Source: Candidatus Latescibacterota bacterium
GTDB taxonomy: Bacteria > Latescibacterota > UBA2968
Direction of reading: 5' to 3'
Length of the DNA stretch: 64,000 nt
NCBI GenBank assembly: GCA_965204745.1
Contig: OZ242010.1
Location: forward strand, 1,344,001 to 1,408,000
This document shows, piece by piece, positions 42,477 to 62,004 of the stretch (positions are counted from its first letter, which is position 1; each line of letters starts with the position of its first letter). Position numbers and translations under genes: made by a program. The notes beneath the pieces are model-generated. The model was not told where the DNA came from and did not search any database. It was given only the letters and a program-made list of their open reading frames with translations.

Positions 42477-43547
42477 TCAAGGGGTGTTTGCGTCCCGTGC
42501 GTCTGGTATGGGCAAATAGATCCAAAAAGTCGTGCCGTGTCCTGGGGTGCTTTCCACGTCGATGTGCCCGCCGTGCTGGTAGATGATGCGCTGGGCAATG
42601 GACAACCCCAACCCGGTGCCTTCGTCTTTGGTCGTGTAATAAAACTCGAAAATGCGATCCACTTCTTCTTCGGGAATGCCGCATCCCGTGTCTGTGAGCA
42701 TCAGACAAACCTGCGCGTGTTCCGGTTGCGTTCGGACGATGAGGTCCCCGCCGTCTGCCATGGACTGAAAGGCATTGACCGCGATGTTGAGCACGGCTTG
42801 CCCGAGTTGATCCTCGTCTCCATTTATTACGGGCAGGGCGTTGGAAAGTTCCAAACGCAATGCGACATCGCGCTCGCGTGCTTCGGGCGCGACCAATTCA
42901 AACACATGGCGGACAATGTCGTTGACCGACACATGGCGCAGGTGGAGTTTGGGGGTGCGCGAGAACCGCAGAAAGTTGTGTACGATGCGGTCGAGGCGTT
43001 TCATCTCGGTTTGGGCGATGTTGAGCCGCTGCAAGAGACGCGCTTTGGAGGAGCTCGTCAATGCGCCGAGGTCGTCTGCTAGCAGTTGTAGCTGAATGTC
43101 AATCGCCCCCAGTGGGTTGCGAACTTCATGGGCGACCGACGCGGCCAGCCTGCCCAGCGCGGTCATTTTTTCCACTTGAAAAATTTCCCATTCCATCCGC
43201 TTTAGTTGCGAGACGTCGCGCACGGACAGCACCAGCCCTGCCCGGGTTTCGGCGTCCAAAAACGACGTGCTCACGCGCAGGTGTTGCAACCCCCCGTCGG
43301 CATTGTGATCCACCAAGTCCGCGTCTGATGCCAATTCTTTTTGTCTCAATCCCCGATGCAAAATCCGCAGGAGTTCGGGCCGCTGGACAAACAATTGCTC
43401 TGGGGATGCCCCGTAAACGGTTTGCTCGGCCCAGCCCATCAAGGTGGTCAGATGCACGTTGACCATCACGGCCCGATGCGTTTTGTCAAAGGCTATGATG
43501 CCCTCGCCCAAGCCCTGCAAAATCGAGGCGCTATAATCCGTGTCCAT
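42477..43547 (-). CDS. PAS sensor histidine kinase (NtrB-like)
   Basis: AHEVRNPL H-box, LN..VNA, D.G.GI, F.TTK and GTGLGL motifs. Confidence 0.92.
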   Translation of the reverse strand: MDTDYSASILQGLGEGIIAFDKTHRAVMVNVHLTTLMGWAEQTVYGASPEQLFVQRPELLRILHRGLRQKELASDADLVDHNADGGLQHLRVSTSFLDAETRAGLVLSVRDVSQLKRMEWEIFQVEKMTALGRLAASVAHEVRNPLGAIDIQLQLLADDLGALTSSSKARLLQRLNIAQTEMKRLDRIVHNFLRFSRTPKLHLRHVSVNDIVRHVFELVAPEARERDVALRLELSNALPVINGDEDQLGQAVLNIAVNAFQSMADGGDLIVRTQPEHAQVCLMLTDTGCGIPEEEVDRIFEFYYTTKDEGTGLGLSIAQRIIYQHGGHIDVESTPGHGTTFWIYLPIPDARDANTP

Positions 43548-43696
43548 GCGCGTTCCCTCGTCTGTTCTGTGCGTGCAATGCGTTCGCGGGCAATTTTCCA
43601 CATTTCCACCCCAAACGCAAGCCCAAACTGGTTGACACATGATCGCGGATTGAGCAGATTGGCAAGAGGGGAGAGGTAAGATACTCTCTTAAAAGG

Positions 43697-44704
43697 TCAA
43701 GGGGTTTTCGGGGTGATTCGATAGAATTTTTCGCCCTCAAAATCTTGGTCATGGCGCAACATGCCCCAGATCGAATGGAGCAACTTTCGCATCACCGCAA
43801 CGATAGCCTGCAAAGGTTTCTTGCCGCGGGCGATGAGTTGGTCATAGAAGGCTTTGACATGGCCTTCGTGTCTGATGGCCACCCAGGCAGGCATATAGAG
43901 GGCATGGCGGAGGTACTTATTCCCGGTTTTCGAGATGCGTCTTTGTGGATTGGCGGTTCCGGATTGTTTGGGTTTGGGATCCAGGCCTGCATGTGCGACC
44001 CACTGGGGCGGTTGCATCTCCTCTGGCAAAAGGGTCAACTCGGCCAAGAGCCGCAAGGCACTCGTTTGCGCGATGCCAGGCGTCGAGCAGAGGCGTTGGT
44101 AGGCACGCTTGAGGGGCTCATCGTGCAAAACGAGATCGAGGGCTTGGCTTTCCAAGTATGCAATCCGGCGTTTGAAGTGTCGAATATTCACCTGAATATC
44201 GCGTGCGATGAGACGTGTGCTGCGGATGTGGTAGCTCTGCGCGTGGTTGCGGCTCTGTTCGCGGATGATCTCCTGCTTGAGTTGGTCAATGCGTCTGGTG
44301 AGGGCTTGCAGTTGAAGCCGTTGCTCGCTCGGCGCTTGCCAAGGCACAAAAGGCATGCGCTCGGCATAGTCGAGGATCAACAACGCATCCTTCGCATCCG
44401 TCTTCGCCCGTTGCATGCAGGCTTGGGCGTACTTGCTCATCGCTTTGGGATTGACGACCATGACCTTTGTGTGGCGATGCCGATGCAAGGCCAAGGCCAC
44501 CCCCAAACTGTAAAGCCCGGTCGCTTCGAGGCACACAGAGACCATGTGCCCGCCCTTCGTGAGCCACTTCAGCAACCGCTTATGCGCTTGGGGATCATTG
44601 GCAAAGGTCGCTTGCATGACAGCTTGTCCGGGTCTGGACAGGGCAACGGACAACGTGCGGGCACTGACATCAATGCCGGCAAAAGCGGGGTGAGATTTCG
44701 ACAT
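43697..44704 (-). CDS. IS110 DEDD recombinase
   Basis: GIDVS, CLEATG, KTD..DA, PGI and GL.P...QSG...ISK.GN..LR..LY motifs. Confidence 0.95.
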   Translation of the reverse strand: MSKSHPAFAGIDVSARTLSVALSRPGQAVMQATFANDPQAHKRLLKWLTKGGHMVSVCLEATGLYSLGVALALHRHRHTKVMVVNPKAMSKYAQACMQRAKTDAKDALLILDYAERMPFVPWQAPSEQRLQLQALTRRIDQLKQEIIREQSRNHAQSYHIRSTRLIARDIQVNIRHFKRRIAYLESQALDLVLHDEPLKRAYQRLCSTPGIAQTSALRLLAELTLLPEEMQPPQWVAHAGLDPKPKQSGTANPQRRISKTGNKYLRHALYMPAWVAIRHEGHVKAFYDQLIARGKKPLQAIVAVMRKLLHSIWGMLRHDQDFEGEKFYRITPKTP

Positions 44705-44769
44705 GGGGGCCTCCTGTGATGAGGGGGTTGTAAGGGATCTGGTGCGCGCTCGGGGTCGCGTCCCGACCA

Positions 44770-44950
44770 TTGACGCCAAGTCTACCGGTCTTGTATATGC
44801 AGCCTCAAGGGGCTTAGATACTCTTCGGCATAGACCCGGCGGTCGGGGGGCCTATCTTACCTACAAGGTCATCGCCTTCAAGAGGGGCCGGCCTTCCCCG
44901 AGCCGGGCATCAAGATGGCTTATCTCGATACGAGGGCGCAACTCCTAATT
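44770..44950 (-). ncRNA. Putative IS110 bridge RNA (boundaries approximate)
   Basis: Two internal loops whose guides match the target (GGCCCCTCT, AGGTAAG) and the donor (AGAGTATCT, ATACAAG). Confidence 0.75.
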
Positions 44951-45107
44951 AACCCTTACTTCCAAGATACAAGAGGGGAGACGCAAGACGTAAGAGGCAA
45001 GAGGCAAGAGGGGTGGCCTTCTCATGTCTTGCCTCTCACCTTTCACCTTTTTGGGCGATGCGTGGTGCTCGCCCGAAGATACAAGCGTCTGGACTGGGGA
45101 GTATCAA

Positions 45108-48100
45108 ATGCAGAGGGACAAACACATCTTGGACAATCGCCGCGCTACGGTTGTGGGTTATCTGCGCGAACAGTTGCGTGCCGCAGAGGTATTCCGGCTG
45201 GTATCGGCGTATTTTACGATTTACGGGTATGGCGCACTGCAAAGCGAATTGCGCGGCATTGGGGATGTGCGTTTTCTCTTTGGGGATCCGGCATCGGTGG
45301 GCGAGGTGGATCCCGGTGGAAAGCAGGAACAATCCTTTGCGTTGACCGAAGGCGGTCTGTCGCCGAATCTCGCATTGTCACAAAAATGGCTTGCGCGGCA
45401 ATGCGCGGACTGGGTGCGTCGCAAAGGAGTCAAAATCCGCTCGGTCGGCAAATCCAATTTTCTGCACGGCAAAATGTACCTCGCCGAATCTGCCCAGGGC
45501 CGCGCGGCAGTGGTCGGCAGTTCCAACTTTACCCGCAATGGCTTGGGCGGCGGGACGAGTGCAAATGTGGAAATCAACTTGGCGACCCGAGATGCTGGTG
45601 TGTGCGCGGAACTGCGGGCGTGGTTCGACGACCTGTGGGCGGACGAGGCGTTGACTGTGGATGTGAAACGAGACGTGTTGGCGGCCCTGAACCGCATCGG
45701 CGAGGATCACGCGCCGGAGTTTATTTATTTTAAGACGCTGTACGAGTTGTTCCGCGCAGATATCGAGGAGAGACAGGACGGGGAAACCCAACTGGCAGAG
45801 ACGCATCTTTACGATACTGAAATTTGGAATGCCCTGTACGGTTTTCAGAAGGACGGGGCCAAAAGCGCGATTGCCCGCTTGTTGCGGCACAACGGGTGCA
45901 TTTTGGCCGATAGCGTGGGCTTGGGCAAGACCTACACCGCGCTGGCCGCGATCAAGTTCTTCGAGTTGCGAAACGAGCGCGTGCTGGTCTTGTGCCCGAA
46001 AAAACTGCGCGAAAACTGGGCCTTGTATCCGGTGGCGAACGCCCATGTTCACAATCCCTTTCCCGCGGATCGCTTTGGGTACACCCTGCTCTCGCATACG
46101 GACTTGTCCCGCAACAGCGGGCGCGCAGGCGATATTGATTTGGCGCATTTCAACTGGCGCAATTTCGATCTGGTGGTCATTGACGAGTCGCACAATTTTC
46201 GCAACGACACCAAGCCGCGCACGGGCGACGACGGCGAGATTCGCCACAGCCGGTACTCGCGGCTGTTGGAAGAGGTGATTGAGGAAGGCACGAAAACAAA
46301 GGTGCTGATGCTTTCGGCAACGCCGGTCAACACCTCGCTGATCGACCTTCGCAACCAGATCTATTTGATGACCGAAAAGCGCGAGGATGTGTTCCGAGAC
46401 AGCTTGGGCATCGGGGATATCGGCGCGTTGCTCGCGCAGGCTCAACGGGCGTTTAAGGCTTGGGAGACCAAGGCGGATTCCAAAAGAGATAAGTCCGAGT
46501 TGGCGGCGATGCTCGGCGCGGATTTTTTTGGGTTGCTCGGCGGGGTTTCCATTGCCCGGTCGCGGCGGCAGATCGAAATGTTTTACGCCGAGGAAATGGA
46601 CCGAATCGGAAAATTCCCCGCGCATCAAAAGCCGGAAAATGCCTATCCGAAAACCGATCTCTGCGGCGACTTGTCCTATCAAAAGTTGTCCGATCAAATT
46701 GGGCAATTCGCCTTGTCCATCTATCGCCCATCCAGCTATGTGACCGGCGAAGAAGCGAAGAAACGCTTGGCAAAAGAAAAAAAAGACCTGCACTTCAATC
46801 AGGCGGACCGCGAGCGGTTTCTCATCGGCATGATGCGGACGAACTTTCTCAAGCGTTTGGAGAGTTCCGCGCATTCGCTTGCGAAAACCCTCGGGCGCAC
46901 CGTTGGCAAAATCGACGATATGGTTGCAAAAATAGACCGCTACGCGCAACGGACCGCGCAGGACGCCCGAGCCGATATTTTGCCGGACGATGACGAAGAC
47001 GACGAGGAGTTTCTCGTCAATCGGGCGCGCACGCCCTACCACCTGCGCGAGTTGGACTTGGATGCGTGGAAAAGGGATTTGCAGAGAGACCGCGCAATTC
47101 TCACCTCGGTGTGGGAAAGGGTCAAAGCCATCGACCCGCAACGGGATGGCAAGCTCAGGGCGATTGCGGAACGCATTCGAAACAAGGCGCGCAATCCGAC
47201 GCGTAACCGCGATGGCAAGCCCAACCGCAAGATGCTGGTGTTCACCACGTTCAAAGACACGGCGCGCTATTTGTACGACAACCTGACCGGTCTGGCCCGC
47301 GAACTGAATATCGACATTGCGATGGTCTCTGGCGACGAAACGCACACCTCGGTTGGCGACAACGATTTCAACGCCATCCTCACCGACTTCGCCCCTGTCG
47401 CACGCAACCGCGGGGCAACAGATGACACCGCTGAAATCGACCTGCTGATCGCCACGGACTGCATTTCAGAAGGGCAGAATTTGCAGGACTGCGACACCGT
47501 GCTCAACTACGATATTCACTGGAACCCGGTGCGCCTCATCCAGCGACTCGGGCGCGTTGACCGCATTGGCAGTCGCAACCCCTTTGTGCAGATGATCAAC
47601 TATTGGCCCACGCGGGATATGGATGTTTATTTGCGCCTGCAACACCGGGTTGAAGCCCGCATGGCCTTGGCCGATGCAGCGGCCAGCGGGGACGACGATC
47701 CGTTGCGCGAAGACGCCGCACAGACGGAGATCAATTTCCGAGACGAACAACTGAAGAAATTGCGCGAAGAGGTGGTGGATTTTGACGCCTTATCCGATGG
47801 CGTCGTGATGAGCGATTTTACGTTCGATTACTTTTTTGCGCAGTTGTTGCGGTATTTGGAGAAAAACAAGGCCGCGCTGGAAGCAATGCCCAATGGGGTT
47901 TATGCCATCACCCGTGGGCATGGCGATACCGCACGCCCGGGCGCGATATTTTTCTTTCGCCAGCGAGACGCGAGCGCGGACAGACGAGAAAAAGCCGCCA
48001 GCCCGGTGCATCCCTACTACGCGGTGTATGTGCGCGACAGCGGCGATATTCGCTACGGTTGTGCCCATGCCAGACAGGTGTTGGAATTGTTTGAATCGGT

Positions 48101-48356
48101 CGCCGTTGGAAAAACCGAACCCCTGCAAAAACTCTGCGACCAGTTTGACCACGAAACCCAAAACGGTCGAGACATGACCCGTTACAACCGACTTTTGGAC
48201 GCGGTGATGGCCCACATCAGCGGGGCGAATAAGACGACTTACATCCAACACCTGGGCCTCCGCGGCCCACGCGATTTCAAGCTACCGGCAAAAACCAAAG
48301 CCCAAAATGCCACCTTGGATTTTGAACTGGTAACGTGGCTGGTGATAACTGTCTGA
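45108..48356 (+). CDS. PLD-nuclease / SNF2-like helicase fusion
   Basis: HGKMY...GSSNFT (PLD), ADSVGLGKT, DESH, SATP, SEGQNLQ and QRLGRVDRIG motifs. Confidence 0.9.
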   Translation: MQRDKHILDNRRATVVGYLREQLRAAEVFRLVSAYFTIYGYGALQSELRGIGDVRFLFGDPASVGEVDPGGKQEQSFALTEGGLSPNLALSQKWLARQCADWVRRKGVKIRSVGKSNFLHGKMYLAESAQGRAAVVGSSNFTRNGLGGGTSANVEINLATRDAGVCAELRAWFDDLWADEALTVDVKRDVLAALNRIGEDHAPEFIYFKTLYELFRADIEERQDGETQLAETHLYDTEIWNALYGFQKDGAKSAIARLLRHNGCILADSVGLGKTYTALAAIKFFELRNERVLVLCPKKLRENWALYPVANAHVHNPFPADRFGYTLLSHTDLSRNSGRAGDIDLAHFNWRNFDLVVIDESHNFRNDTKPRTGDDGEIRHSRYSRLLEEVIEEGTKTKVLMLSATPVNTSLIDLRNQIYLMTEKREDVFRDSLGIGDIGALLAQAQRAFKAWETKADSKRDKSELAAMLGADFFGLLGGVSIARSRRQIEMFYAEEMDRIGKFPAHQKPENAYPKTDLCGDLSYQKLSDQIGQFALSIYRPSSYVTGEEAKKRLAKEKKDLHFNQADRERFLIGMMRTNFLKRLESSAHSLAKTLGRTVGKIDDMVAKIDRYAQRTAQDARADILPDDDEDDEEFLVNRARTPYHLRELDLDAWKRDLQRDRAILTSVWERVKAIDPQRDGKLRAIAERIRNKARNPTRNRDGKPNRKMLVFTTFKDTARYLYDNLTGLARELNIDIAMVSGDETHTSVGDNDFNAILTDFAPVARNRGATDDTAEIDLLIATDCISEGQNLQDCDTVLNYDIHWNPVRLIQRLGRVDRIGSRNPFVQMINYWPTRDMDVYLRLQHRVEARMALADAAASGDDDPLREDAAQTEINFRDEQLKKLREEVVDFDALSDGVVMSDFTFDYFFAQLLRYLEKNKAALEAMPNGVYAITRGHGDTARPGAIFFFRQRDASADRREKAASPVHPYYAVYVRDSGDIRYGCAHARQVLELFESVAVGKTEPLQKLCDQFDHETQNGRDMTRYNRLLDAVMAHISGANKTTYIQHLGLRGPRDFKLPAKTKAQNATLDFELVTWLVITV

Positions 48357-48722
48357 ATCGCGGATTACGCGGATTACGCGGATGAACGCGGATTGGGTTG
48401 GCAGGTAGGGCGGAGGCGCAGAAAATACAAACGCCGCAAGTGGGGTAAAGGAAGGACGCGGATTGGGGAGCGCAGATAGGGCGGAGGGCGCAGATGATAC
48501 AGACGCCGCAAGTGGGCAGAGGAAGCGGATGAAAAGCGAAAGGCACAGCATTCAGCCCTCGTCACTCCGGCGGAAGCCGCTTTTGTTTTTTGTTCGTCCA
48601 AAGATAAGCGGAGGATGTAGCGGGTGCGAAGGTCGTAGGTGGTGCGGAGGACGCAGTAGGTGCGGGGTTGGTGCGGGGTAATCCGTGCAATCCCCTAATC
48701 CGCGTAATCCGCGATTCAGACA
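48350..48722. repeat. Complete palindromic element (373 bp)
   Basis: Both TIRs present; supplies the helicase stop codon. Confidence 0.9.
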
Positions 48723-48734
48723 AATGGACCATCC

Positions 48735-51700
48735 ATGAATAACAACATCAGAGAACAAATCGGGCATGCCTTGGGCGCGCTGGCGGATGGGGATTTTGTG
48801 GTGGGGGCGCGAGACATGCTCGCGGTGCTCGGCTATGAAAGCACGCGCACCTTAGACATCTCGGGCAGGGTGAATGATTTTATCTCTCAATTCCCCGCGC
48901 CAAACGAGAACACGCAGACCGAGCAAGTGTTCCGTGAGAACGCCCAATCCGTGCGGATTCTCTTTCAGGTGACGGATACTGAAATCGCGGCGCAGAATAC
49001 GCTGTTTGACACGGACGATTTTGACCGTGGCAATGCGCGGAGTTTTCTCTTTGTCGCTGTGGCGGTGAACGGCGCGTCCTATTCGCGCGGGCAATACGCC
49101 ACATTTACTCGCGAGATCAACAAGCGAATCAACGTGCCGACTGTGGTGCTGTTCAAGACCGCAACCGATCTGTTGACCCTATCCTTTGTTCACCGCCGCG
49201 AACACAAGCGCGATTCCAACCGCGATGTGCTCGGCCATGTGTCGCTGATCCGAGAGATCGATCCCATCACTCCGCATCGCGCTCACTTAGATATTTTGTC
49301 CGATTTGTCGCTACCGCAACGCTTGGCGTGGATGAACGCCTACGACAAGCCGCACAATTTTGACGGCCTGTTGACCGCTTGGCTCAACGCGCTGGATACC
49401 GAGGTGCTGAACAGGCGGTTTTACGGGGATTTGTTCGGCTGGTTTGAACGCGCCATCCGAGAAGCCACATTCCCGTCTTCTCGTCAGAAGCGGACGTTGC
49501 CGCCTGAAGAACATATCATCCGCTTGATCACTCGGTTGATGTTCGTTTGGTTCATCAAAGAGAAAAGACTGATCGCAACGGATCTGTTCATCGAGGAGCG
49601 GATCGCCAGTTTGCTGAAGAATTACGACCGCGACGCGGGCGATTCGTATTATCGCGCTGTGTTGCAAAATCTGTTTTTCGCTACGCTCAACACCAAGAAA
49701 AACAGCCGCGGTTTTAGCCAGGGGAGCAACGCCACGCACCGCGATTTCTCCCGCTATCGGTACGAGAATGAAATCGCTACTCCCGACCAGTTGCTCGGCC
49801 TGTTCAAGCAAACGCCGTTCATCAATGGCGGCCTGTTTGATTGCCTCGACAGCGAGGCGGGCACCCGCGCTGGCGGCTATCGCATCGACTGTTTTACCGA
49901 CAACCCTGCCCAACGCCGCGATTATTCTATCCCCAATCGCCTGTTCTTCGACGATGATGGGCTGATTCCCCTGTTCAACCGCTACAAGTTCACGGTGGAG
50001 GAGAACACGCCTGTCGAGCAAGAAGTCGCGCTTGACCCCGAGCTTCTCGGCAAGGTGTTCGAGAATCTCCTCGCCGCGTACAACCCCGAAACCCGCGACA
50101 CCGCACGCAAGCAGACAGGCTCGTACTACACGCCGCGCCCTGTGGTGGATTATATGGTGGATGAGGCATTGGTGGCAACACTGGCTCAAGCGTGTTCGCC
50201 AAGCGATAGCGACACAGATTTTTGGCAAGATCGATTGCGCTATTTGCTGGACTACGAGGATGCGTTCAACGACGCCCATGAACTGTTTGAGGAAGGGGAA
50301 ACCGCGGGCATTGTGCGGGCGATTTCCGAGATTAAAGTGCTCGATCCGGCGGTCGGTTCCGGCGCATTCCCAATGGGCATGTTGCACAAGATGGCTATGG
50401 CCTTGCGTCGTCTTGATCCGGACAACCAACGCTGGGCAACCTTGCAAAAAGAACGCGCTCGCACAAAGGCAGACGCGGCGTTTGATACGAAAAATCAGCG
50501 AGAACGCGATGCCGAGTTGTTGGCGATCAGCGAGACCTTCGAGCGGTATTCGGGCGACTTTGGGCGCAAGTTGTATCTGATTCAGAACAGCATTTTCGGC
50601 GTGGATATTCAGCCTATCGCCACGCAGATCGCCAAGCTGCGATTTTTCATCTCCCTCGCTATCGAGCAAGAGCCAAACGAGGACGCGGACAACTTCGGCA
50701 TCAAACCCTTGCCCAATTTGGAAACGCGCTTTATCGCCGCGGATACGCTGATGCAACTCAAAGCCGCGGATCAACTGGACTTGTTCCGCCAACAGATTGA
50801 TGCCCTGCAAACAAAACTGACGGAAAACCGCGAGCGACATTTTCACGCGACCACGCGCCCGAAAAAACTCGCGTGCAGAGATGCGGACAACCAGTTGCGT
50901 CGCGCATTGGCAGGCGAACTCAACTCTGCCGGCCTTCCCGAAGATGATGCGAAGAAAATCACGCATTGGGATCCCTACGATCAAAACGCCAAAGCCGACT
51001 GGTTCGATCCCGAGTATATGTTCGGCATCGCGGACGGGTTCAACATCGTGATCGGCAATCCGCCGTATGTGCGTCAGGAAAATATCGGCCCGCACAAGTC
51101 CTCCATCCTCGCCCTCTATTCTAATGCCGCGACTGCCCGTTCTGACCTGTACTGCTACTTTTACGCACGCGGCCTGCAACTGTTGCGCGATGGTGGAATG
51201 CATGTTTTCGTCTGTTCTAATAGCTGGCTGGACGTGGGCTACGGGGCGAAACTCCAAGACCTTCTGTTGAAAAACGCCCATATACAAGCCATCTACGAAA
51301 GTGCTGTCGAGCGGCAGTTTTCCACAGCGGACATCAACACCATCATCAGCGTCATTCGCAAGACAACCGCCAATGACGACGATGCCACCCGGTTCGTACA
51401 TCTGCTGGAATCCTTTGAAGCCGCCGTTGCCGAAGGCGGCAAGCGTCGAGAAATCGTCAAAAGCCGGGAGGAACTCATCGCGGCGGCGACCAACCCACAA
51501 AGCAAAAAATTCATCGGCGACAAGTGGGGCGGCAAATACCTGCGTGCGCCGAACATCTATCATGCCATTCTGAACAAGTGCGCCGACAAGTTGGTTCGCT
51601 TGGGCGATATCGCGAAAGTGCGACGCGGGATAACTACCGGGGCTAACGACTTCTTTTACCTGACCCGCGACCGGATTGCCGGGTTTGGCATTGAGCCAGA

Positions 51701-52364
51701 TTTTTGCCATCCGGTGATGACCAGTCCACAAGAATCCCGCCGTATCGCCATCGACCCGGCAGAACTGCCGCGGCGGTTGTTTATGTGCCATGAGAACAAG
51801 GCGACACTGGTTGGCACGGGAGCATTGGCGTATATCGAATGGGGCGAGGCACAGGGGTATCACCAGCGGCGGAGCGTCGCCTCGCGGCGACGGTGGTATG
51901 ACTTGGGCAATAACCTTGATACGAAGCTGGCTTTGGGTTGCCGGGTGGACACGACAAGCCGTACAATGCTAGCAGTCGACGGTCTATGCTTTGACAAGGC
52001 ATTTTACAAGATAGATAGTGGAAAGTTACCGACTGTGCAGATGTGCGCGGTGCTAAACTCGACAATGACCCAACTTATGATTAACATAGAAGGGCGGGCA
52101 AATTTCGGTGGGGGCCTGCTAGAAATTGTGGTTTATGAAACGGCGCACTTGGCTGTTTTGAACCCGTCGCTACTGCCTGCGTTGGATGCGGAGCTATTCG
52201 CCTCCTCAGATTGGGATGTGCTGACGCCATCGCCGGAGCGTCGGCACATTGACGACGCCGTGTTCGATGCGTTGGCGTTGACAGCGGGCGAGCGCGAGGC
52301 GGTATATGCCGGCGTTGCCGAGTTGGTGAACAACCGGAAGCAACGGGCGCGGGTAACTGTCTGA
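48735..52364 (+). CDS. Eco57I/type IIG-like N6-adenine methyltransferase, copy B
   Basis: GSYYTPR, DPAVGSGAF, IGNPPYVRQE, DLYCYF and RGITTGANDFF motifs. Confidence 0.92.
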   Translation: MNNNIREQIGHALGALADGDFVVGARDMLAVLGYESTRTLDISGRVNDFISQFPAPNENTQTEQVFRENAQSVRILFQVTDTEIAAQNTLFDTDDFDRGNARSFLFVAVAVNGASYSRGQYATFTREINKRINVPTVVLFKTATDLLTLSFVHRREHKRDSNRDVLGHVSLIREIDPITPHRAHLDILSDLSLPQRLAWMNAYDKPHNFDGLLTAWLNALDTEVLNRRFYGDLFGWFERAIREATFPSSRQKRTLPPEEHIIRLITRLMFVWFIKEKRLIATDLFIEERIASLLKNYDRDAGDSYYRAVLQNLFFATLNTKKNSRGFSQGSNATHRDFSRYRYENEIATPDQLLGLFKQTPFINGGLFDCLDSEAGTRAGGYRIDCFTDNPAQRRDYSIPNRLFFDDDGLIPLFNRYKFTVEENTPVEQEVALDPELLGKVFENLLAAYNPETRDTARKQTGSYYTPRPVVDYMVDEALVATLAQACSPSDSDTDFWQDRLRYLLDYEDAFNDAHELFEEGETAGIVRAISEIKVLDPAVGSGAFPMGMLHKMAMALRRLDPDNQRWATLQKERARTKADAAFDTKNQRERDAELLAISETFERYSGDFGRKLYLIQNSIFGVDIQPIATQIAKLRFFISLAIEQEPNEDADNFGIKPLPNLETRFIAADTLMQLKAADQLDLFRQQIDALQTKLTENRERHFHATTRPKKLACRDADNQLRRALAGELNSAGLPEDDAKKITHWDPYDQNAKADWFDPEYMFGIADGFNIVIGNPPYVRQENIGPHKSSILALYSNAATARSDLYCYFYARGLQLLRDGGMHVFVCSNSWLDVGYGAKLQDLLLKNAHIQAIYESAVERQFSTADINTIISVIRKTTANDDDATRFVHLLESFEAAVAEGGKRREIVKSREELIAAATNPQSKKFIGDKWGGKYLRAPNIYHAILNKCADKLVRLGDIAKVRRGITTGANDFFYLTRDRIAGFGIEPDFCHPVMTSPQESRRIAIDPAELPRRLFMCHENKATLVGTGALAYIEWGEAQGYHQRRSVASRRRWYDLGNNLDTKLALGCRVDTTSRTMLAVDGLCFDKAFYKIDSGKLPTVQMCAVLNSTMTQLMINIEGRANFGGGLLEIVVYETAHLAVLNPSLLPALDAELFASSDWDVLTPSPERRHIDDAVFDALALTAGEREAVYAGVAELVNNRKQRARVTV

Positions 52365-52549
52365 ATCGCGGATTAAACGGATTACGCGGATGAACGCGGA
52401 TTGGGTTAGCAGGTAGGGCGGAGGGCGCAGATGGCATAGACGCCGCAAGTGGGGCAAAGGGCGCAGGTGGTGCGAAAGACACAGCGGGGGCAGGGGGTAG
52501 CGGGGTAATCCGTGCAATCCCCAAATCCGCGTAATCCGCGATTCAGACA
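52358..52549. repeat. Complete palindromic element (192 bp)
   Basis: Both TIRs present; supplies the MTase stop codon; followed directly by RBS GAGGAGG. Confidence 0.9.
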
Positions 52550-52562
52550 AGAGGAGGACAAC

Positions 52563-54395
52563 ATGAGCGAACCACTTAAAATTTTCATTACCTATGCACA
52601 TAGGAATACATCAGAAAAAGAAGAATTGAAAACACGCCTTACTTTCATGGAGCAACAAGACGAGATAACGATCTGGCACGACAACGAAATTCTTCCGGGC
52701 GACAGATGGCGGGAAGCAATTTCCAATAATCTCGCTGAATCGGACATTTTGCTTTACCTCGTCTCCGCTGATAGCCTTGTCTCCGAGAACTGCAACAAGG
52801 AATTGTCCGAAGCTATAAAAAATACGGACAAAAATATAATCATCCCTATCATACTTGAGGATTGCGATTGGCAACAACATCAACTTAGCAATTTTCAAGC
52901 CCTTCCTGACAGAGGCAAGCCGATTAACGAATGGCAACCTGAGAGCACAGGTTGGCAACGTGTCGTAAAGGGGATCCGAAAAGTTGTAAAAAATATTGTT
53001 GATTCCCGGGGAAAAGTCACCTCCGATCAACAAGATGCAAAAGAACAGTTGGCGGGTTTAGGCCGACAACATCTACTATCCATGGGCAACTTTAGGATGA
53101 TGTTGGGGCAAGTGGAAGTAGCCGTAGAAACCTATTCGTATGCAATCAAACTGCAACCGAATTTTGCTGAAGCCTATAACAACCGCGGCGTTGCTTATAG
53201 CGACAAAGGCAAACTTGACCAAGCGATACAAGACTTCAATGAGGCCATAAAACTGAAACCAGATTATGCCGATGCCTATTACAATCGCGGCATTGCTTAC
53301 GTCAAAAAAGATGACTTAGCCCAGGCGATACAAGACTTCAATGAAGCCATAAAACTGAAACCAGATTTTGCCGATGCCTATAACAACCGCGGCTTTGCTT
53401 ACGCCAAAAAAGGCAACTTTGAACAGGCGATACAAGACTACAATGAGGCGATAGAACTGGAGCCAAACTATGCTGAAGCCTATTTCAATCGGGGCATTGC
53501 TTACAGGATCAAAGGCAACTTTGAACAGGCGATACAAGACTTTAATGAGGCGATAGAACTGGAGCCAGATTTTGCCGATGCCTATAACAATCGCGGCATT
53601 TCTTACAGCAACAAAGGCGAATTTGACCAAGCGATACAAGACTACAACAAAGCCGTAGAACTCAATCCGAATGATGCTGAAGCCTATAACAACCGCGGCG
53701 ATGCTTACAGCAACAAAGGCGAATTTGACCAAGCGATACAAGACTTTAATGAGGCGATAGAACTGGAGTCAGATTTTGCCGAAGCCTATTACAATCGCGG
53801 CATTGCTTACAGCAACAAAGGCGAATTTGACCAAGCGATACAAGACTACAGCAAGGCCATAGAACTGGAGTCAGATTTTGCTGAAGCCTATTACAATCGT
53901 GGCGTTGCTTACGGCAACAAAGGCGAATTTGACCAAGCGATACAAGATTACAACAAAGCCGTGGAACTCCATCCGAATGATGCTGAAGCCTATTACAACC
54001 GCGGCGATGCTTACAGGATCAAAGGCAACTTTGAACAGGCGATACAAGACTACACCAAAGCGATAGAACTCAACCCGAATGATGCCTATGCCTATAACAA
54101 CCGCGGCAATGCTTACAGGATCAAAGGCAAACTTGATCAAGCGATACAAGACTTTAATGAGGCCATAGAATTGAAGCCAGATTTTGCTGGAGCCTATTTC
54201 AATCGGGGCTACACTTGGTTACATTTGGGCGAATGGGAAAAGGCCAGAGCAGACTTGACCACCGCCAAGAATATGGGTATGGACATTGCCGATTTCTTTC
54301 GTGCCGACCACAAGAGCGTTGCGGACTTTGAGCGGAAATACGACCTTGAGTTGCCGGAAGACATCGCGGACATGTTGACGGGGGAAACTGTCTGA
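52563..54395 (+). CDS. TIR domain plus ~11 TPR repeats
   Basis: IFITYAH, W.D..I.PG..W, LLYLVS...S..C.KEL and IIPIIL motifs, then 34-aa AEAY.NRG.AY repeats. Confidence 0.9.
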   Translation: MSEPLKIFITYAHRNTSEKEELKTRLTFMEQQDEITIWHDNEILPGDRWREAISNNLAESDILLYLVSADSLVSENCNKELSEAIKNTDKNIIIPIILEDCDWQQHQLSNFQALPDRGKPINEWQPESTGWQRVVKGIRKVVKNIVDSRGKVTSDQQDAKEQLAGLGRQHLLSMGNFRMMLGQVEVAVETYSYAIKLQPNFAEAYNNRGVAYSDKGKLDQAIQDFNEAIKLKPDYADAYYNRGIAYVKKDDLAQAIQDFNEAIKLKPDFADAYNNRGFAYAKKGNFEQAIQDYNEAIELEPNYAEAYFNRGIAYRIKGNFEQAIQDFNEAIELEPDFADAYNNRGISYSNKGEFDQAIQDYNKAVELNPNDAEAYNNRGDAYSNKGEFDQAIQDFNEAIELESDFAEAYYNRGIAYSNKGEFDQAIQDYSKAIELESDFAEAYYNRGVAYGNKGEFDQAIQDYNKAVELHPNDAEAYYNRGDAYRIKGNFEQAIQDYTKAIELNPNDAYAYNNRGNAYRIKGKLDQAIQDFNEAIELKPDFAGAYFNRGYTWLHLGEWEKARADLTTAKNMGMDIADFFRADHKSVADFERKYDLELPEDIADMLTGETV

Positions 54396-54613
54396 AGCGC
54401 GGATTAAACGGATTACGCGGATGAACGCGGATTGGGTTGGCAGACAGAGCAGAGGGCGCAGATGACACAGACGCCGTAAGTGGGGCAGAGGACGCGGATT
54501 GGGGAAGCGCAGGTAGGGCAAAGGTCGCAGGTGACACGAAAGACACAGCGGGGGCAGGGGGTAGCGGGGTAATCCGCGAAATCCTTAAATCCGCGTAATC
54601 CGCGATTCAGACA
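54389..54613. repeat. Complete palindromic element (225 bp)
   Basis: Both TIRs present (one mismatch); supplies the TIR-TPR stop codon. Confidence 0.9.
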
Positions 54614-54624
54614 AGGAAAATAAA

Positions 54625-54858
54625 ATGCGGAACATCAAAGCCAAATTTTTTGAAGGCGTGCTCATACCGCAGGAGAGGCTCGACCTCAAAGAAGGCGCGG
54701 ATGTGGTTATAGCTATCACAGGCCCGCCGCCGGATCGCACCCTTGAGACGCTGCGAGCAACAGCGGGGGCGTGGAAGGGAACACATGATCCAGAAGCATT
54801 GAAACAGGCCATCTACACTGGCCGGCGCACCCTCTCTCGGCCTCAACCAAAGTTGTAA
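54625..54858 (+). CDS. DUF104/AF2212-like antitoxin, copy B
   Basis: Near-identical to 9325-9555. Confidence 0.75.
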   Translation: MRNIKAKFFEGVLIPQERLDLKEGADVVIAITGPPPDRTLETLRATAGAWKGTHDPEALKQAIYTGRRTLSRPQPKL

Positions 54859-54861
54859 TGT

Positions 54862-55247
54862 ATGCAATATCTCGTAGATACAGATTGGGTCATTGACCAC
54901 CTACACGGCCGCGAGCGAGTGGTCAGACAGCTCGAGGAACTCGAACCGGAAGGTATCGGCTTAAGCGTCGTGTCGCTAGCCGAACTTTACGAGGGCGTGT
55001 TCTATTCTACGACGCCTCAAGACAACGAAAAGGCACTTCAGGATTTCCTATACGGCGTTGAGGTCTTGACACTAAATGACGACATCTGCCGGATATTTGC
55101 CCAGGAAAGAGGCAGGTTGAGGACCGCCGGCCTTCTCATCGGCGACTTTGACCTTCTGCTACTGCGATATGCTATGGCCTCACGTTGCTCACCAATAATC
55201 GCCGACACTTTGAACGCTTGGATGGATTGTCCATCATTTCTGTTTAG
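54862..55247 (+). pseudogene. Frameshifted vapC
   Basis: YLVDTD...SLAEL...IGDFDLL; the expected tail ATAICYGLTLLTNNRRHFER...* is in another frame (break at ~55157). Confidence 0.8.
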
Positions 55248-55254
55248 GCAAGGT

Positions 55255-55493
55255 GTGAAGGGTGGTGGGTTTAATCCGCGTAATCCCCAAATCCGTGAAA
55301 ATCCGCGATCCAGACAAGGGGGCAGAGGACGCAGATTGGACAGCGCAGGTGGTGCGAAGGACATAGCGGCGATGTAGGGCGGTGGGCCGGTCTCGCCTCT
55401 TACCTCTTGCCTCTTACTCGGGGATAGGGCTTGCGGTAGGGCGGCGGGGTAATCCGCGTAATCCCCAAATCCGCGTAATCCGCGATCCAGACA
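55255..55493. repeat. Two right-arm remnants of the palindromic element
   Basis: AATCCGCGATCCAGACA ending at 55316 and at 55493. Confidence 0.75.
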
Positions 55494-55508
55494 AATAAGG
55501 ATGATTCA

Positions 55509-58211
55509 ATGACCAAACAAACAGCCGCAAACCGGGCGGAGATGGCCGCGTCTGAGACTTTGAACCGCGAATTGATCGCGGCGAGAAAAACGTGTTTATC
55601 GGGCGCGTGGGCAGGAGAACGCCTGTCGCGGTTGCGCGCGTACCTCGATACCACTTGGGAACGCATTTACGCGGATCACCGCCGCGGGGCATCGGGCGGC
55701 GAGGTGGTTGCCGCGTTGACGCAGCGCGTGGATGTTCTCATCGGCGCGCTCTATGCAGAAGCGGTTGCGGAACACGGCGCGCAAGCCGGGTTTGCGGTTC
55801 TCGCCCAAGGGGGCTATGGCCGGGGCGCGCTCAATCCCTGGTCGGACATCGACCTGTTGTTTCTCTTTCGCAGAAAAGTCAATGAAAAGGACCCCATCAC
55901 GCGGGCCATTCTCCACACCTTGTGGGATTTGCGCTTTGAAGTGGGGTACAGCACGCGCACCCTGTCCGATTGCATCATCGCGGCGCAAGGCGATACGGAC
56001 TCGCTCACCGCCATGCTCGAAACGCGCCATCTCGTGGGCGATGCGGCATTGGAATGCCAACTGCGAGACGCGCTCGCACGTCGATTCTTTGGCAGGCGCG
56101 CGCGCGGTTTTGTCACGCAAAAAATGCGGGAACGGACGCAGCGACACAGCCGATCCAAGTTCTCCACGCAACTCCTCGAACCCAATGTCAAAGAAAGCCC
56201 GGGCGGGTTGCGCGATGTTCACACCGCGGGTTGGTTCTCGATGGCGAGACGCGGCCTTCGCGCGCCCGAGGGGTTGCGCGAAAGCCATGTGCTCACGCGC
56301 AGAAATTATCGCCTGTACATGGATGCGTTTGATTTTCTGCTGCGCGTTCGCAATGAATTGCACTTTCACACGGGCAAATACTTCGACGTGCTCGAGCACG
56401 ACCTCCAACCGGCGATTGCAAAAAACCTGGGGTACGAAGACCGGGGCAATGAATTGGGGGTCGAACACTTTATGCGCTCCTACTACGCGCATGCGCGGGT
56501 TGTGAAACACCTGTGCGACCTGATCTGCGAACGCCTCAAAGGTCAATCCTCCGCAGGTCGGGCCGTGGGCCTGCTCGTGCGTAGGCAACTCGACGACGGC
56601 TCTGTATTGCACCACACGCACATTGCCTTGCCCAAAAAGAGACGCGGTTTTTTCCAGGACGCGCCCCATCGCCTCCTCTCGCTTTTTCTCAATGCACAGC
56701 GGTTTGGCGTTCCCCTCAATGAAGCGGCCAAACAAGCGGTCAAAGACCACCTCGACCTCATCGACGACGCGTTTCGGTCGTCCGAGCGCGCGCGCTGTGT
56801 TTTTCTCGACATCTTGCACGCGCCCGGGGGCATTGGCGCGACTTGGCGCGCCATGCACGAACTCGATATTTTGGGTACTTACGTGCCCGAGTTTGGCAGC
56901 CTGACCTGCCTGGTGCAGTACAACCGCTATCACATCTACACCGCCGACGAACACACCTTGGTCGCGGTGGAGCATCTCGATCACCTCGCGCGGTCGCCGG
57001 CTTTGCCCGACAGCGTGCAGCATCTCAGGCGCGTGTACAATGAAATTTCGAGAAAGGAACTCCTCTATCTCGCGATGTTGATGCACGATGTGGGGAAATC
57101 CGTGCGCGGCGAGGATCACAGCGTTGTGGGGGCAGAGATGACCCGGCGTTTTCTCGACCGCCTGCGCTTGCCGGATGAGCATGTCAAAACCGTCGTTTTT
57201 CTCGTGCGCGAGCACCTCACGATGGCGAGCATTTCGCAGCGGCGCGACTTGGCTGACCAGCGCATGATCCGCGAATTTGCCAGCAGATTTTCCCATCCCG
57301 ACGTGTTGCGGATGCTCTACGTGCTGACCTACGCGGACTTGTCTGCGGCCACGCACACCGCTTGGACCTCGTGGAAGAGCCACCTCTTGCGCGAACTGTA
57401 CGAAAAGACCTTTGCGACCCTCACGCAGAGCGCGTCTGCGGACTTGGAGCGGCCGGAAGAACGAGAGATTTGGGAAATCCTCACCGCACTGGAAACGCGC
57501 ATCCCCCGCCAGACCTTGGTCGAGCACCTCAACAACATGCCGCCGCGCTACCCCGAGCAAAATGGCCCGGAGGAAATCGCACGGCACTTGCACCTCATCA
57601 ACGCGATGGGGGCGTCGCTAGTCGCGGTCAGCGTCCAACCGAGCGGAACATTTTCGGAAATCGCGGTTTGCACGCGCGACCACCCCTTTCGCCTGTCCGA
57701 GATTTGCGGGGTGTTGGCAACGCGGGACATCGACATTTTTAACGCGCACGCGTACACGCGCAGAGATGGCACGGTGATCGACATTTTCCAAGTCACCCGG
57801 AGGGACGATTCAGAGGATCACCTCGCACTCCAAGCGCGCATTCAGCAAACCCTCACGGATGTTTTTCAACAAAAAGTGCGCGTATCCGATTTGTTCGACC
57901 ACCACACCCGGCGGTGGGCACTGCGGCGGCGGCCCGCCATTCCCATCGCCCCGAAGATCGCATTTGAGAATGCCGTGTCGGCGCGTTATACCGTCATCGA
58001 CATCAGCGCGCGAGACGCCACCGGGTTGCTGTACACCATCACGCGGACCTTGTCCGAACTCGGCTTGGATATTTACACGGCGCGCATTGGCACGCAAGGC
58101 GACCGCGCTGTCGATGCTTTTTACGTGCGGAAAAATGGCACTAAGATCACGGACGCCGCGGAGATTGAACACATCACTCGATCTCTGATTCGGGCGATTG
58201 GGAAGTTGTGA
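55509..58211 (+). CDS. glnD: [Protein-PII] uridylyltransferase
   Basis: GGYGRG.L.PWSDIDL, EPNVKESPGGLRD, YH.YT.DEH, HD domain and two ACT domains. Confidence 0.95.
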   Translation: MTKQTAANRAEMAASETLNRELIAARKTCLSGAWAGERLSRLRAYLDTTWERIYADHRRGASGGEVVAALTQRVDVLIGALYAEAVAEHGAQAGFAVLAQGGYGRGALNPWSDIDLLFLFRRKVNEKDPITRAILHTLWDLRFEVGYSTRTLSDCIIAAQGDTDSLTAMLETRHLVGDAALECQLRDALARRFFGRRARGFVTQKMRERTQRHSRSKFSTQLLEPNVKESPGGLRDVHTAGWFSMARRGLRAPEGLRESHVLTRRNYRLYMDAFDFLLRVRNELHFHTGKYFDVLEHDLQPAIAKNLGYEDRGNELGVEHFMRSYYAHARVVKHLCDLICERLKGQSSAGRAVGLLVRRQLDDGSVLHHTHIALPKKRRGFFQDAPHRLLSLFLNAQRFGVPLNEAAKQAVKDHLDLIDDAFRSSERARCVFLDILHAPGGIGATWRAMHELDILGTYVPEFGSLTCLVQYNRYHIYTADEHTLVAVEHLDHLARSPALPDSVQHLRRVYNEISRKELLYLAMLMHDVGKSVRGEDHSVVGAEMTRRFLDRLRLPDEHVKTVVFLVREHLTMASISQRRDLADQRMIREFASRFSHPDVLRMLYVLTYADLSAATHTAWTSWKSHLLRELYEKTFATLTQSASADLERPEEREIWEILTALETRIPRQTLVEHLNNMPPRYPEQNGPEEIARHLHLINAMGASLVAVSVQPSGTFSEIAVCTRDHPFRLSEICGVLATRDIDIFNAHAYTRRDGTVIDIFQVTRRDDSEDHLALQARIQQTLTDVFQQKVRVSDLFDHHTRRWALRRRPAIPIAPKIAFENAVSARYTVIDISARDATGLLYTITRTLSELGLDIYTARIGTQGDRAVDAFYVRKNGTKITDAAEIEHITRSLIRAIGKL

Positions 58212-58287
58212 AAAGAATTGTAGGCTACGCCTACGAGGAAGGGAAAGATCCGGAGGGGGACATCCATCGCTTTGGGCGGACGGGTGG

Positions 58288-58323
58288 GGACTGACCACTG
58301 ACCACTGACTACTGACCACTGAC
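58288..58323. repeat. Heptamer microsatellite (CTGAC[CT]A)n
   Basis: Direct reading. Confidence 0.85.
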
Positions 58324-58329
58324 GCACGG

Positions 58330-59067
58330 TCAAATCGGCCTTCGCGCCAAGCTAAATGTCTGCGCTGTCGGGCCGCCATCTAATTGGGTGGCTAGAAAGA
58401 GCGCGAGAGGGACCACATCTTCTGGGGCCTTGATCACTTCGCTCGGCGCGAAAGGCGGGGGGCCGCCCACCTGCATGCGGTCCTGCGTGAGATGCGTGGC
58501 AACCGGGCCGGGGATGAGTTCGTTGACCGTGATATTGTGTTCCCACACTTCTTCTGCCAAGCACTGGGTCAGCATCCACATGCCGGCCTTGCCGACGTGA
58601 TAGGCCGAGCTGTTCGGCGTGGGACGGTGGCCCATGCCCGAACCCATGTTGATCACGCGGCCCCCGCCCGCGTCGATCATCAGCGGCAACAGGGCACGAG
58701 AGACCAGGTACGCGCTGATGCAATTCACCGTGACATCCGCGATCCAAAGCTCCGGATCGCTGTCGAGAATGCGGGCGCGCTCAATGCCTCCGCCCGCGTT
58801 GTTGACGAGGATATCGAGGCGACCGTATTCCGTGCGGACAGTTTCGGCCAGCGCATCCACGCTTGCGCGATCCGTGACATCGGTTTGCGCGGTCAAGGCG
58901 CGACAGCCAAGGGCGCGAATCTCTGCGGCGACCGCATCGAGTTGTTCGGCCGTCCGTGCGGCGAGCACGAGGTTCGCGCCTTCTCGGGCAAAGGCAATGG
59001 CGATGGCCCGACCAATCCCGCGCCCACTGCCCGTCACCAAAGCGATTTTCCCAGCGAGTTTTGACAT
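58330..59067 (-). CDS. Short-chain dehydrogenase/reductase
   Basis: TGSGRGIG, NNAG and YxxxK (YHVGK) motifs. Confidence 0.92.
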   Translation of the reverse strand: MSKLAGKIALVTGSGRGIGRAIAIAFAREGANLVLAARTAEQLDAVAAEIRALGCRALTAQTDVTDRASVDALAETVRTEYGRLDILVNNAGGGIERARILDSDPELWIADVTVNCISAYLVSRALLPLMIDAGGGRVINMGSGMGHRPTPNSSAYHVGKAGMWMLTQCLAEEVWEHNITVNELIPGPVATHLTQDRMQVGGPPPFAPSEVIKAPEDVVPLALFLATQLDGGPTAQTFSLARRPI

Positions 59068-59088
59068 AAGCGATCTCCTTGTGCTGTT

Positions 59089-60210: not shown

Positions 60211-60462
60211 GATAGCTCCTTGAAGCGGTCAGCGGTCAGCAATGCGTCAATATAAAAATGTAGGGTATAGCGTGCAACCACTGATTAACGCTACAACTGC
60301 CTCATCATCGCCTCTCCCCTCTTGTATCTTTGGGCGAGCACGGGGACATCGCCCAAAAAGGTGAGAGGTGAGAGGCAAGACGGGAGAAGACCTACACTCA
60401 CTGCTCGCCTTTGAACAGGCTGTCGCCAGTTGTACCCCGCTCGTGCCTTTTGCGGCTAACCC

Positions 60463-60553
60463 CCTCTTACGTCTTGCCTCTTACGTCTTGCCTCTTACGT
60501 CTTGCCTCTTACGTCTTGCCTCTCACCTCTTGCCTCTTACGTCTTACGTCTCA
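60463..60553. repeat. Heptamer microsatellite C[CG]TCTT[AG] (reverse of the GCAAGAG family); contains the folB stop codon
   Basis: Direct reading. Confidence 0.9.
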
Positions 60554-60890
60554 CCTCCACTTCAACGCCATCGAAGTTGACGGGTACTGGTGGGTTGGGT
60601 TTTCGCACGCGCACCAGCAGGTTTATCAAGCCCAATTCCGATTGCAAGACGTCGGCGATGCGGTCCGCCAAGGCTTCGATCAGGCCGAATCGCTCGCCTG
60701 TCACCACTTGCTCAACCAGCGTGCAAACGTGCGGGTAATCCACGGTTTGCGGGGGATTGCCGCGGGCGAATCCGCTAAAGTCGCCATAGACCTCGACATC
60801 GACCTCAAATTTCTGGCCGAGTTTGGCTTCTTCTTCAAACAAGCCGTGGTGCGCGTAAAAGGCCATGTTTTTGATTCTGAGAATGTCCAT
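60537..60890 (-). CDS. folB: Dihydroneopterin aldolase
   Basis: FYAHHG...EE..LGQ.F.VD, TVDY, LIE.LA and VRKP motifs. Confidence 0.93.
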   Translation of the reverse strand: MDILRIKNMAFYAHHGLFEEEAKLGQKFEVDVEVYGDFSGFARGNPPQTVDYPHVCTLVEQVVTGERFGLIEALADRIADVLQSELGLINLLVRVRKPNPPVPVNFDGVEVEVRRKT

Positions 60891-60902
60891 TATGCGTCCC
60901 TT

Positions 60903-61877: not shown

Positions 61878-62004
61878 AGATGCTCCTTTCTTTTGTGGAT
61901 GCCATTATCATTCTGTTGCCTAATCCGCGCAATGTCTATATAATAAGCGGTCAGTTGTCAGTTGTCAGTTGTCAGTTGTCAGTTGTCAGTTGTCAGTTGT
62001 CAGT

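Follow-up and report, generated by a model that had tools for sequence, protein, structure and literature searches.

In a 64,000-nt stretch of the genome of a Candidatus Latescibacterota bacterium (assembly GCA_965204745.1, contig OZ242010.1, positions 1,344,001 to 1,408,000; hereafter the window), the minus-strand segment 43679-44971 was found to be an IS110-group element of 1293 bp, and we consider it very probable that this element is an insertion sequence moving by bridge-RNA-guided recombination. Its anatomy, its copy number, its target specificity and the covariation of both guides with targets and paired stem bases with each other are directly visible in the DNA; the transcription, circle formation and catalysis described below are proposed by analogy with IS621 and ISCro4. 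The mechanism is a known one (Durrant 2024, Hiraizumi 2024), of which the element is a natural example rather than a new kind, and its differences from IS621 are quantitative. What is local here is a landing pad in a microsatellite, a right target guide of 7 nt and guides that have diversified within one genome. Positions are those of the window unless a genome locus is given, and element position p corresponds to window position 44972-p.

Boundaries, copies and recombinase of the element

On the minus strand, TGTATCTTGG... comes after a heptamer array that ends in ...CTCCCCT-CT; some 1.29 kb later, ...AAGAGAGTAT-CT leads into TACCTCT and further heptamers. The junctions thus read ...CTCCCCT-CT|TGTAT... 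on the left and ...AGAGTAT-CT|TACCT... on the right. An earlier note, made from the letters of the window, had deduced a donor AGAGTAT-CT-TGTAT and a target CTCCCCT-CT-TACCT, and had claimed that excision restores the heptamers in register. Both junctions read exactly in this way, and removal of 43679-44971 (the element plus one CT) in silico restored the heptamer register, as expected for a scarless insertion. The non-coding left end spans 267 nt and the right end only 18 nt after the stop codon, and the element is without long terminal or subterminal inverted repeats, in agreement with the long-left/short-right organization of the IS110 group.

The same ends recur throughout the genome. The alignments of all 52 full-length copies begin at base 1 (or 3) and reach base 1293; each copy opens with TGTAT next to a flanking CT and closes with AGAGTATCT, and the CT core is present at both junctions in 52/52 copies. 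Moreover, unitigs of the public contigs end at 43679-43681. An alternative boundary 7 nt inward, which the note had kept in view, was excluded, because a subfamily of copies with 89% identity reads TGTATGT there, without CT, and because the right donor guide ATACAAG pairs with CT+TGTAT at the outer boundary instead.

A blastn search with the 1293-bp element against the whole 5.48-Mb genome yielded 77 alignments, 52 of full length and the rest fragments, with about 20 truncated copies among the matches. Among the full-length copies, 37 are at least 99% identical to the element, eight share 96.13%, one 95.75% and one 94.83% identity, and five share 88.5-89.1% (the 89% subfamily). In total, 31 copies are 100% identical over 1291-1293 bp, an identical protein is encoded by 34 of the 52, and an open frame of at least 359 aa is kept in 51, the remaining one being cut to 311 aa. 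In the public run X2, the summed contig depth inside the element was 25-30 times the depth of its flanks. These data indicate that the element is intact and has multiplied very recently. All 57 PF01548 matches in the genome come from this family, and thus no other IS110 family was found there.

One further copy, 100% identical and on the same strand, begins within the window at 63892-64000 and continues past its end (G000:C1:1407892-1409184, in which G000 denotes this genome). At G000:C1:1121591-1124180, two copies of 96.1% and 100% identity stand head to tail with only TACCTCT between them, the second being inserted in the heptamer unit directly after the right end of the first.

The sole long frame in the region read (43400-45300), at 44704-43697, encodes the recombinase. 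Its product matched the Pfam families PF01548 (DEDD_Tnp_IS110; E = 1.2e-24, 87.3 bits against a cut-off of 29) and PF02371 (Transposase_20; E = 4.8e-20). In a phmmer search against solved structures, the ISCro4 transposase (PDB 9t56), compared by protein alone, was the best relative (E = 7.6e-40, residues 7-326), and the IS621 transposase (8wt6_A) matched over the full length of the recombinase with distant similarity (E = 5.8e-36). The composite active site of IS621 is formed by D11, E60, D102, D105 and S241 (PMC11208158), to which D12, E60, D103, D106 and S248 of the recombinase align; S248-G249 aligns to S241-G242, the conserved serine-glycine of the Tnp domain (chain numbering in the structure file 8wt6 is offset by two residues). 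The best plasmid-borne relatives of the recombinase are at most 52% identical to it. The two domains, the five catalytic residues, the two RNA loops and the covariation described below support, at the level of sequence, the earlier claim of an intact RNA-guided recombinase.

Table 1. Window coordinates of the IS110-group element, its predicted RNA and adjoining features
Feature	Position	Strand	Remark
Whole IS110-group element	43679..44971	-	TGTAT... to ...AGAGTAT-CT, one CT core counted at the right end
Left target + core CTCCCCT-CT	44972..44980	-	Final unit of the flanking heptamer array (array to ~45010)
Right target TACCT	43674..43678	-	Heptamer array goes on to ~43662
Left donor AGAGTAT + core CT (right terminus of the element)	43679..43687	-	
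Right donor TGTAT (left terminus of the element)	44967..44971	-	
Recombinase gene P0001, 335 aa	43697..44704	-	DEDD RuvC-like domain and Tnp domain
-35-like TTGACC in the right end, overlapping the stop codon	43695..43700	-	Would face the left-end TATCTT only after circularisation
-10-like TATCTT, element positions 3-8	44964..44969	-	
Predicted bridge RNA, ~185 nt	44773..44958	-	5' end placed from the -10 box
Target-binding stem-loop	44843..44901	-	Outer stem 44901-44890 with 44852-44843; inner hairpin 44878-44865
Left target guide GGCCCCUCU	44881..44889	-	Effective part CCCCU+CU; left-target sense, pairs with the bottom strand
Right target guide AGGUAAG	44856..44862	-	Pairs with top strand CT+TACCT
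Candidate handshake guide AUA	44853..44855	-	Directly 3' of the right target guide; complementary to left-donor TAT
Donor-binding stem-loop	44775..44840	-	Outer stem 44840-44826 with 44787-44775; inner hairpin 44814-44801
Left donor guide AGAGUAUCU	44816..44824	-	9/9 identical to the last 9 bases of the element
Right donor guide AUACAAG	44790..44796	-	7/7 reverse complement of CT+TGTAT
Defence-type islet	45024-54395	+	Directly beside the element

Guide segments, RNA fold and choice of target

The bridge RNA of IS621 is encoded in the long left end and consists of one or more 5' hairpins, a target-binding loop and a donor-binding loop; its left guides pair with the bottom strand and its right guides with the top strand, both including the core (PMC11208160). 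The left end of the element in the window follows the same order, the predicted RNA having two 5' hairpins, a target-binding stem-loop and a donor-binding stem-loop. The four guide segments that the earlier note had read there, GGCCCCTCT, AGGTAAG, AGAGTATCT and ATACAAG, lie exactly at the coordinates it gave. Of these, GGCCCCTCT (44889-44881), the DNA form of the left target guide, matches CTCCCCT+CT at 7/9 positions, and AGAGTATCT (44824-44816), that of the left donor guide, equals the left donor plus core. The two hairpins it had named, AAGG-CGATGA-CCTT and AGCC-CCTTGA-GGCT, are also present and are kept via compensatory changes in relatives. With the target loop preceding the donor loop, covariation in the stems and a strand logic as published (PMC11208160), the two-loop layout of IS621 ascribed to this left end was borne out.

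The single-sequence minimum free energy fold contains two 5' hairpins and two long stem-loops. To this, an alignment of 25 left ends (mean column identity 80%) adds a consensus fold by RNAalifold in which both stem-loops have an internal loop and an inner hairpin of 4 bp, and the guide segments are located in the internal loops. Over 30 stem pairs, from which four guide-to-guide pairs added by RNAalifold were left out, 95.2% of the stem cells are paired, compared with 28-53% after the 3' partner has been shifted by 1-3 columns. Compensatory changes on both sides occur in 14 of the 30 pairs, and none of 500 shuffles reached the observed value on any measure; in the outer stem of the donor loop alone, 9 of 13 pairs show such changes. 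The stems are conserved by compensatory changes while the loop segments vary. In the relative L064, the left donor guide and the right end of the element both read AAAC in place of GTAT. Among the pairs left out, RNAalifold joins a pair of bases in the left target guide to a pair in the right one (columns 26-27 with 49-50 of alignment A1) with apparent covariation (for example CG 10, UA 5, GC 4), which may merely reflect that the targets are direct repeats.

In IS621, handshake guides, the bases 3' of the right guides, are complementary to the other DNA partner (PMC11208158). The candidate handshake triplet AUA of the element can pair with TAT of the donor, and in L064, whose donor ends in ..AAC, the triplet is GUA. 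Position 7 is T in the element's target as well as in its donor, and hence cognate and non-cognate pairing are indistinguishable here.

The genome contains 1008 arrays of at least 4 NNNNNCT units, 6671 units in total. One array family has YRCCTCT/CCCGTCT-type units and another, unrelated one has GACAACT-type units; CCCCTCT makes up only 242 of the 6671. The guide pair of the window element is carried by 45 copies, 44 of which were parsed; the left terminus of G 5198949 has one base too many, and this copy was left out. Twenty of the 44 are flanked by CCCCTCT on the left and TACCT on the right, 16 by CCCCTCT and TGCCT, four by TACCTCT and TACCT, two by CCCCTCT and CCCGT, one by CCCCTCT and TACTT, and one by CCCCTCT and TGCCC. 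Counted per side, CCCCTCT is on the left in 40/44 copies, and TACCT and TGCCT are on the right in 24/44 and 16/44. Thus, CCCCT-CT-T[A/G]CCT holds 36/44 copies, 20 of them at exactly TACCT, and a single junction type within the YRCCTCT heptamer family receives the insertions, in keeping with the landing-pad claim of the earlier note. With 52 copies sharing exact ends and 36/44 lying in exact sites, the matches exceed chance.

When uninterrupted sites across the genome were included in the denominators, CCCCT-CT-TACCT was found to be occupied at 20/25 sites and CCCCT-CT-TGCCT at 16/81 (Fisher p = 7e-8). After CCCCTCT, nine other right units together were occupied at 3/136. T[AG]CCT was occupied at 4/140 after TACCTCT and at 0/700 after eight other left units, giving 4/840 for all nine left units other than CCCCTCT. 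The guides predict this pattern: the right target guide AGGUAAG would form a U:A pair at TACCT, a U:G pair at TGCCT, which explains the TGCCT sites, and a mismatch elsewhere, as seen, and the left target guide CCCCUCU predicts the pattern on the left side. The genome comes close to a natural specificity experiment, in which 246 candidate sites (two left-unit types) and 700 controls can be scored as occupied or empty, and in which the site scores show a strong preference for U:A over U:G at one guide position and almost no insertion with other left units. The GACAACT / GACCACT / GACTACT heptamer family, with 1679 array units, is never used by this element. The two copies with CCCGT on the right, at G000:C1:1927368 and 5150716, are near-identical and have 3 guide mismatches; they could be off-target insertions or could have lost one heptamer unit by later slippage.

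Guides and flanks also change together from copy to copy. In the copy G 1297036, both guides are changed (UCCCUCU and AGGUGAG) and both match its flanks, TCCCT-CT|CACCT. The 89% subfamily carries CGCCUCU or UGCCUCU together with AAGUAAG. Before CT, its left flanks read CGCCT, CACCT or TACCT, differences that amount to G:T wobbles on the bottom strand; on the right, TACTT is found in 4/5 copies and TACCT in 1/5. In old fragments with the left flank ...TTCCCCCT, the guides read UCCCCC or UUCCCC. At least four target-loop variants coexist in this genome, each with matching sites, illustrating natural reprogramming of the loop.

The same relation was seen in relatives, which were taken from public metagenome-assembled genomes (two Latescibacterota chromosomes and one Gemmatimonadota contig) and from genomes of the phylum, 12/168 of which match at E <=1e-40, including 3/21 in the genus (both counts include this genome). 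In the 11 other genomes, the guides match their own flanks. The left flank recurs in the left guide of every lineage, and CT with the 3-5 flank bases next to it, taken as reverse complement, gives the right guide. Over 12 non-core positions, guides match their own flanks at 9.5 positions on average and the flanks of other lineages at 5.5. In a permutation of lineages, which are not all independent (two row pairs are copies of one element), 0/20000 reached the observed own-flank sum.

Within the genus (21 genomes), the element is confined to this genome, G091 and G082, and YRCCTCT arrays, counted as pattern matches, number 625 in this genome, 296 in G091, 0 in G082 and 0-4 in the 18 other genomes. 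The guides of G091, CUCGCCUCU and GGGAG, correspond to sites reading CTYRCCT-CT|CCCGT, another heptamer junction, and those of G082, UCCUCCU or UCCCCCU with AGAAAAG, to sites reading ...CCTCCT|TTTCT beside a different repeat. Since G082 is without arrays and G091 uses another junction, each with its own guides, the target loop follows what is on offer in each host. In a 54%-identical relative in G041, the copies L073 and L078 have AT at the left junction and as the core-pairing bases of the left guide, and CT at the right junction; a third copy, L063, has CT at the left junction. The core of this relative may therefore be unequal between target and donor.

Proposed mechanism, known systems and alternative readings

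We propose that excision or copying of an integrated copy yields a circle, in which the right end joined to the left end would assemble a sigma-70-type promoter, TTGACC-N18-TATCTT. This promoter would transcribe an RNA of ~185 nt from the left end, with the recombinase gene behind it. The RNA would fold into two stem-loops with internal loops, the second of which would read the element's own joined ends through AGAGUAUCU and AUACAAG. A tetramer of the DEDD/serine recombinase (D12, E60, D103, D106, S248) would then exchange strands at the shared CT, and the circle would insert scarlessly and in one orientation at CCCCT-CT-TACCT, or at TGCCT via the U:G wobble, the target being one specific junction between two unit types of YRCCTCT arrays.

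A promoter split across the circle junction has been published for IS621 (PMC11208160). When the two ends of the element were joined in silico, the junction read TTGACC-N18-TATCTT, as the earlier note had foreseen, and this putative promoter matches the published arrangement. TTGAnn-N17/18-TA[TC]CTT is present across the joined ends in every lineage except the genome's own 89% subfamily (TATGTT), with N17 in relatives and N18 in this element. The possibility that the heptamer flank supplies integrated copies with a -35 box was rejected, because TTGCCT lies at N18 in only 4/52 copies; no consistent -35 box was found in the flanks of the 52 integrated copies.

In its two Pfam domains, five catalytic residues, left-end RNA layout, guide strand logic, CT core, split promoter and use of a genomic repeat family as target, the element resembles IS621 of Escherichia coli (PMC11208160, PMC11208158). 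The earlier note had called the two donors very similar, and this likeness was confirmed in part, for A6, T7 and the CT core (PMC11208158). Unlike in IS621, whose target is a hairpin of repetitive extragenic palindromic (REP) repeats (PMC11208160), the target here is a junction in a heptamer microsatellite. The right target guide comprises 7 nt (2+5) compared with 4 nt, although right target guides longer than the 4 nt of IS621 have been noted for some orthologues (Durrant 2024, PMC11208160), and the effective left target guide comprises 7 nt compared with 9 nt. The 52 copies in this genome are a further difference, and the left end, searched with blastn in 5,426 E. coli genomes, gave no match.

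ISPpu9 and ISPpu10 of Pseudomonas putida, compared by description, are likewise multi-copy IS110 elements homing to one position of a dispersed intergenic repeat (PMC12288879; 10.64898/2026.03.19.712850), but their targets are palindromic REP-type units rather than tandem heptamers. The IS1111 group, with its seekRNA/bridge RNA, shares the recombinase family and the RNA-guided logic, but has its RNA in a long right end and carries subterminal inverted repeats of 7-17 bp (PMC11208160). In a single, limited literature search, we found no IS110 element linked to a heptamer microsatellite. Bridge recombinases are under development as programmable genome-writing tools, and natural examples show their tolerances; this one offers a compact 335-aa recombinase from an uncultured, sponge-associated Latescibacterota lineage with a fully readable guide layout.

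Several observations weigh against a bridge-RNA-guided, mobile element. The first two bases (GG) of the 9-nt left guide window never match, which leaves 5+2 nt for recognition on the left and 2+5 nt on the right, and 8/44 copies lie in sites with 1-3 mismatches. The guides of one copy of 94.8% identity, G 602782 (G000:C1:602782-604074), whose left end resembles the 89% subfamily, fit its own flanks at 7/12 positions, and those of G 1297036 fit them at 10/12; mobilisation in trans or a later exchange of left ends between copies could account for this misfit. The fold of the single sequence improves only weakly on shuffles (z = -1.86; 12/200 shuffles as good), and the core-pairing CU of the left guide is one base farther from the inner hairpin than in most relatives. 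Since position 7 is T in both partners, the handshake bases could also pair with cognate DNA, a pairing that inhibits exchange in IS621 (PMC11208158). An Rfam scan of 43400-45300 (E up to 10) returned a best E of 0.19, far under the gathering scores, though Rfam 15 may hold no bridge-RNA model. Finally, no RNA run was present among the public runs holding the stretch, and the assembled contigs (4/24 listed runs examined) showed no circle junction, no empty site and no joints.

The stretch or part of it is held in 20 rows of public runs from 8 studies, all Logan contigs, several of them labelled as sponge or marine metagenomes. Two "letters between" records in the contigs correspond to other repeat loci of the genome, one of which equals a hairpin module. 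The Rfam near-matches, to microRNA models (E = 0.19-0.7), fall at 44986-45049, arise from inverted heptamer arrays and do not touch the left end; they were dismissed as RNA genes, the locus being a long palindrome around GGCC.

The silence of the public data would also fit a genuine, recently expanded bridge-recombinase family that is now silent or disabled in this lineage, a reading that the roughly 20 truncated copies and the integrated flanks without a consistent -35 (TTGCCT at N18 in 4/52) favour as well. We consider it distinctly unlikely, since the 31 copies of 100% identity, the protein shared by 34/52 copies and the five intact catalytic residues argue against decay, and since the filling of 20/25 perfect sites looks like near-saturation by a recent burst. 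In addition, integrated copies of IS621 are only weakly expressed (PMC13626964).

Site choice might instead be made by the protein or by the DNA structure of the arrays, with the guide-like segments as bystanders such as captured pieces of target. The targets do lie in structured repeat modules, often beside a palindromic centre, ISPpu10 is reported to need a structural match too (2026 preprint), and RNAalifold pairs parts of the left and right target guides. A bystander role would, however, leave unexplained that guides covary with flanks in at least 10 independent variants, including ones with non-heptamer targets, that the strand logic and internal-loop position are as demonstrated for IS621 (PMC11208160), that compensatory changes keep the stems while the loop segments vary, and that TACCT is preferred over TGCCT as predicted by U:A and U:G pairing. 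We therefore regard this alternative as highly improbable. Spread by segmental duplication or by homologous recombination among arrays, which the repetitive heptamer flanks could support, is hardly credible, because in all 52 copies the identity stops at the same two bases beside a CT core and the flanks are mutually unrelated past a few heptamer units, which excludes segmental duplication and fixes the ends.

Repeat modules and genes around the element

A mosaic repeat module at 45083-45011 (minus strand) and at more than 100 other places in the genome starts with CT|TGTATCTT, sharing these 8 bases with the element's left terminus, followed by a hairpin (GGGCGAGCAC...GCATCGCCC) and then by inverted and direct heptamers. 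CTTGTAT[CG]TT occurs 217 times in the genome, compared with ~21 expected, and only 61 of these occurrences are left ends of the element. The bases before the CT of the modules have the consensus CTCCCCT, resembling the left target of the element. A 21-nt module pattern gave 66, 94 and 195 matches in the three element-carrying genomes of the genus and 0-2 in the other 18; close kinship among the three module-rich genomes may be all that lies behind this. That the CT|TGTATCTT modules might be miniature elements placed by the target loop was not supported as stated, because they do not fit it on the right: their recurrent right end (…GGCTAAAATCCCATCT) precedes many different heptamers, with T[AG]CCT after 9 of its 95 copies, and paired modules have T[AG]CCT on the right in 3/32.

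It is conceivable, though on balance rather unlikely, that the recombinase and the repeats of its host co-evolve, with subfamilies partitioning the junction types of a fast-evolving microsatellite, RNAs acting in trans and CT|TGTATCTT modules serving as substrates of half-match recombination by the enzyme or arising from it. Shared donor ends would let the RNAs of one subfamily act on the DNA of another, and G 602782 could be an instance of this. If so, a bridge recombinase would shape the repeat architecture of its host.

The element and its same-strand copy at the end of the window bracket an 18.9-kb segment (44972-63891) with three defence-type genes and housekeeping genes for GlnD-like, SDR, enolase-superfamily, GcvT-like and Wzz-like proteins. 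With 52 copies of a 1.3-kb repeat and a site-specific recombinase, the genome has a potential source of inversions and deletions, for example of this segment, and it is plausible that the element could rearrange DNA beside the defence genes, as the earlier note had suggested. The defence-type islet encodes an HKD/PLD+SNF2 helicase that is DrmD-like (PADLOC C3a139, 2.9e-106), an Eco57I-like type IIG restriction-methylase (1.9e-70) and a TIR-TPR protein with a ThsB-like TIR (4.1e-27). The listed start of the first of these genes, 45024, lies inside the repeat module, and the true start is probably farther downstream.

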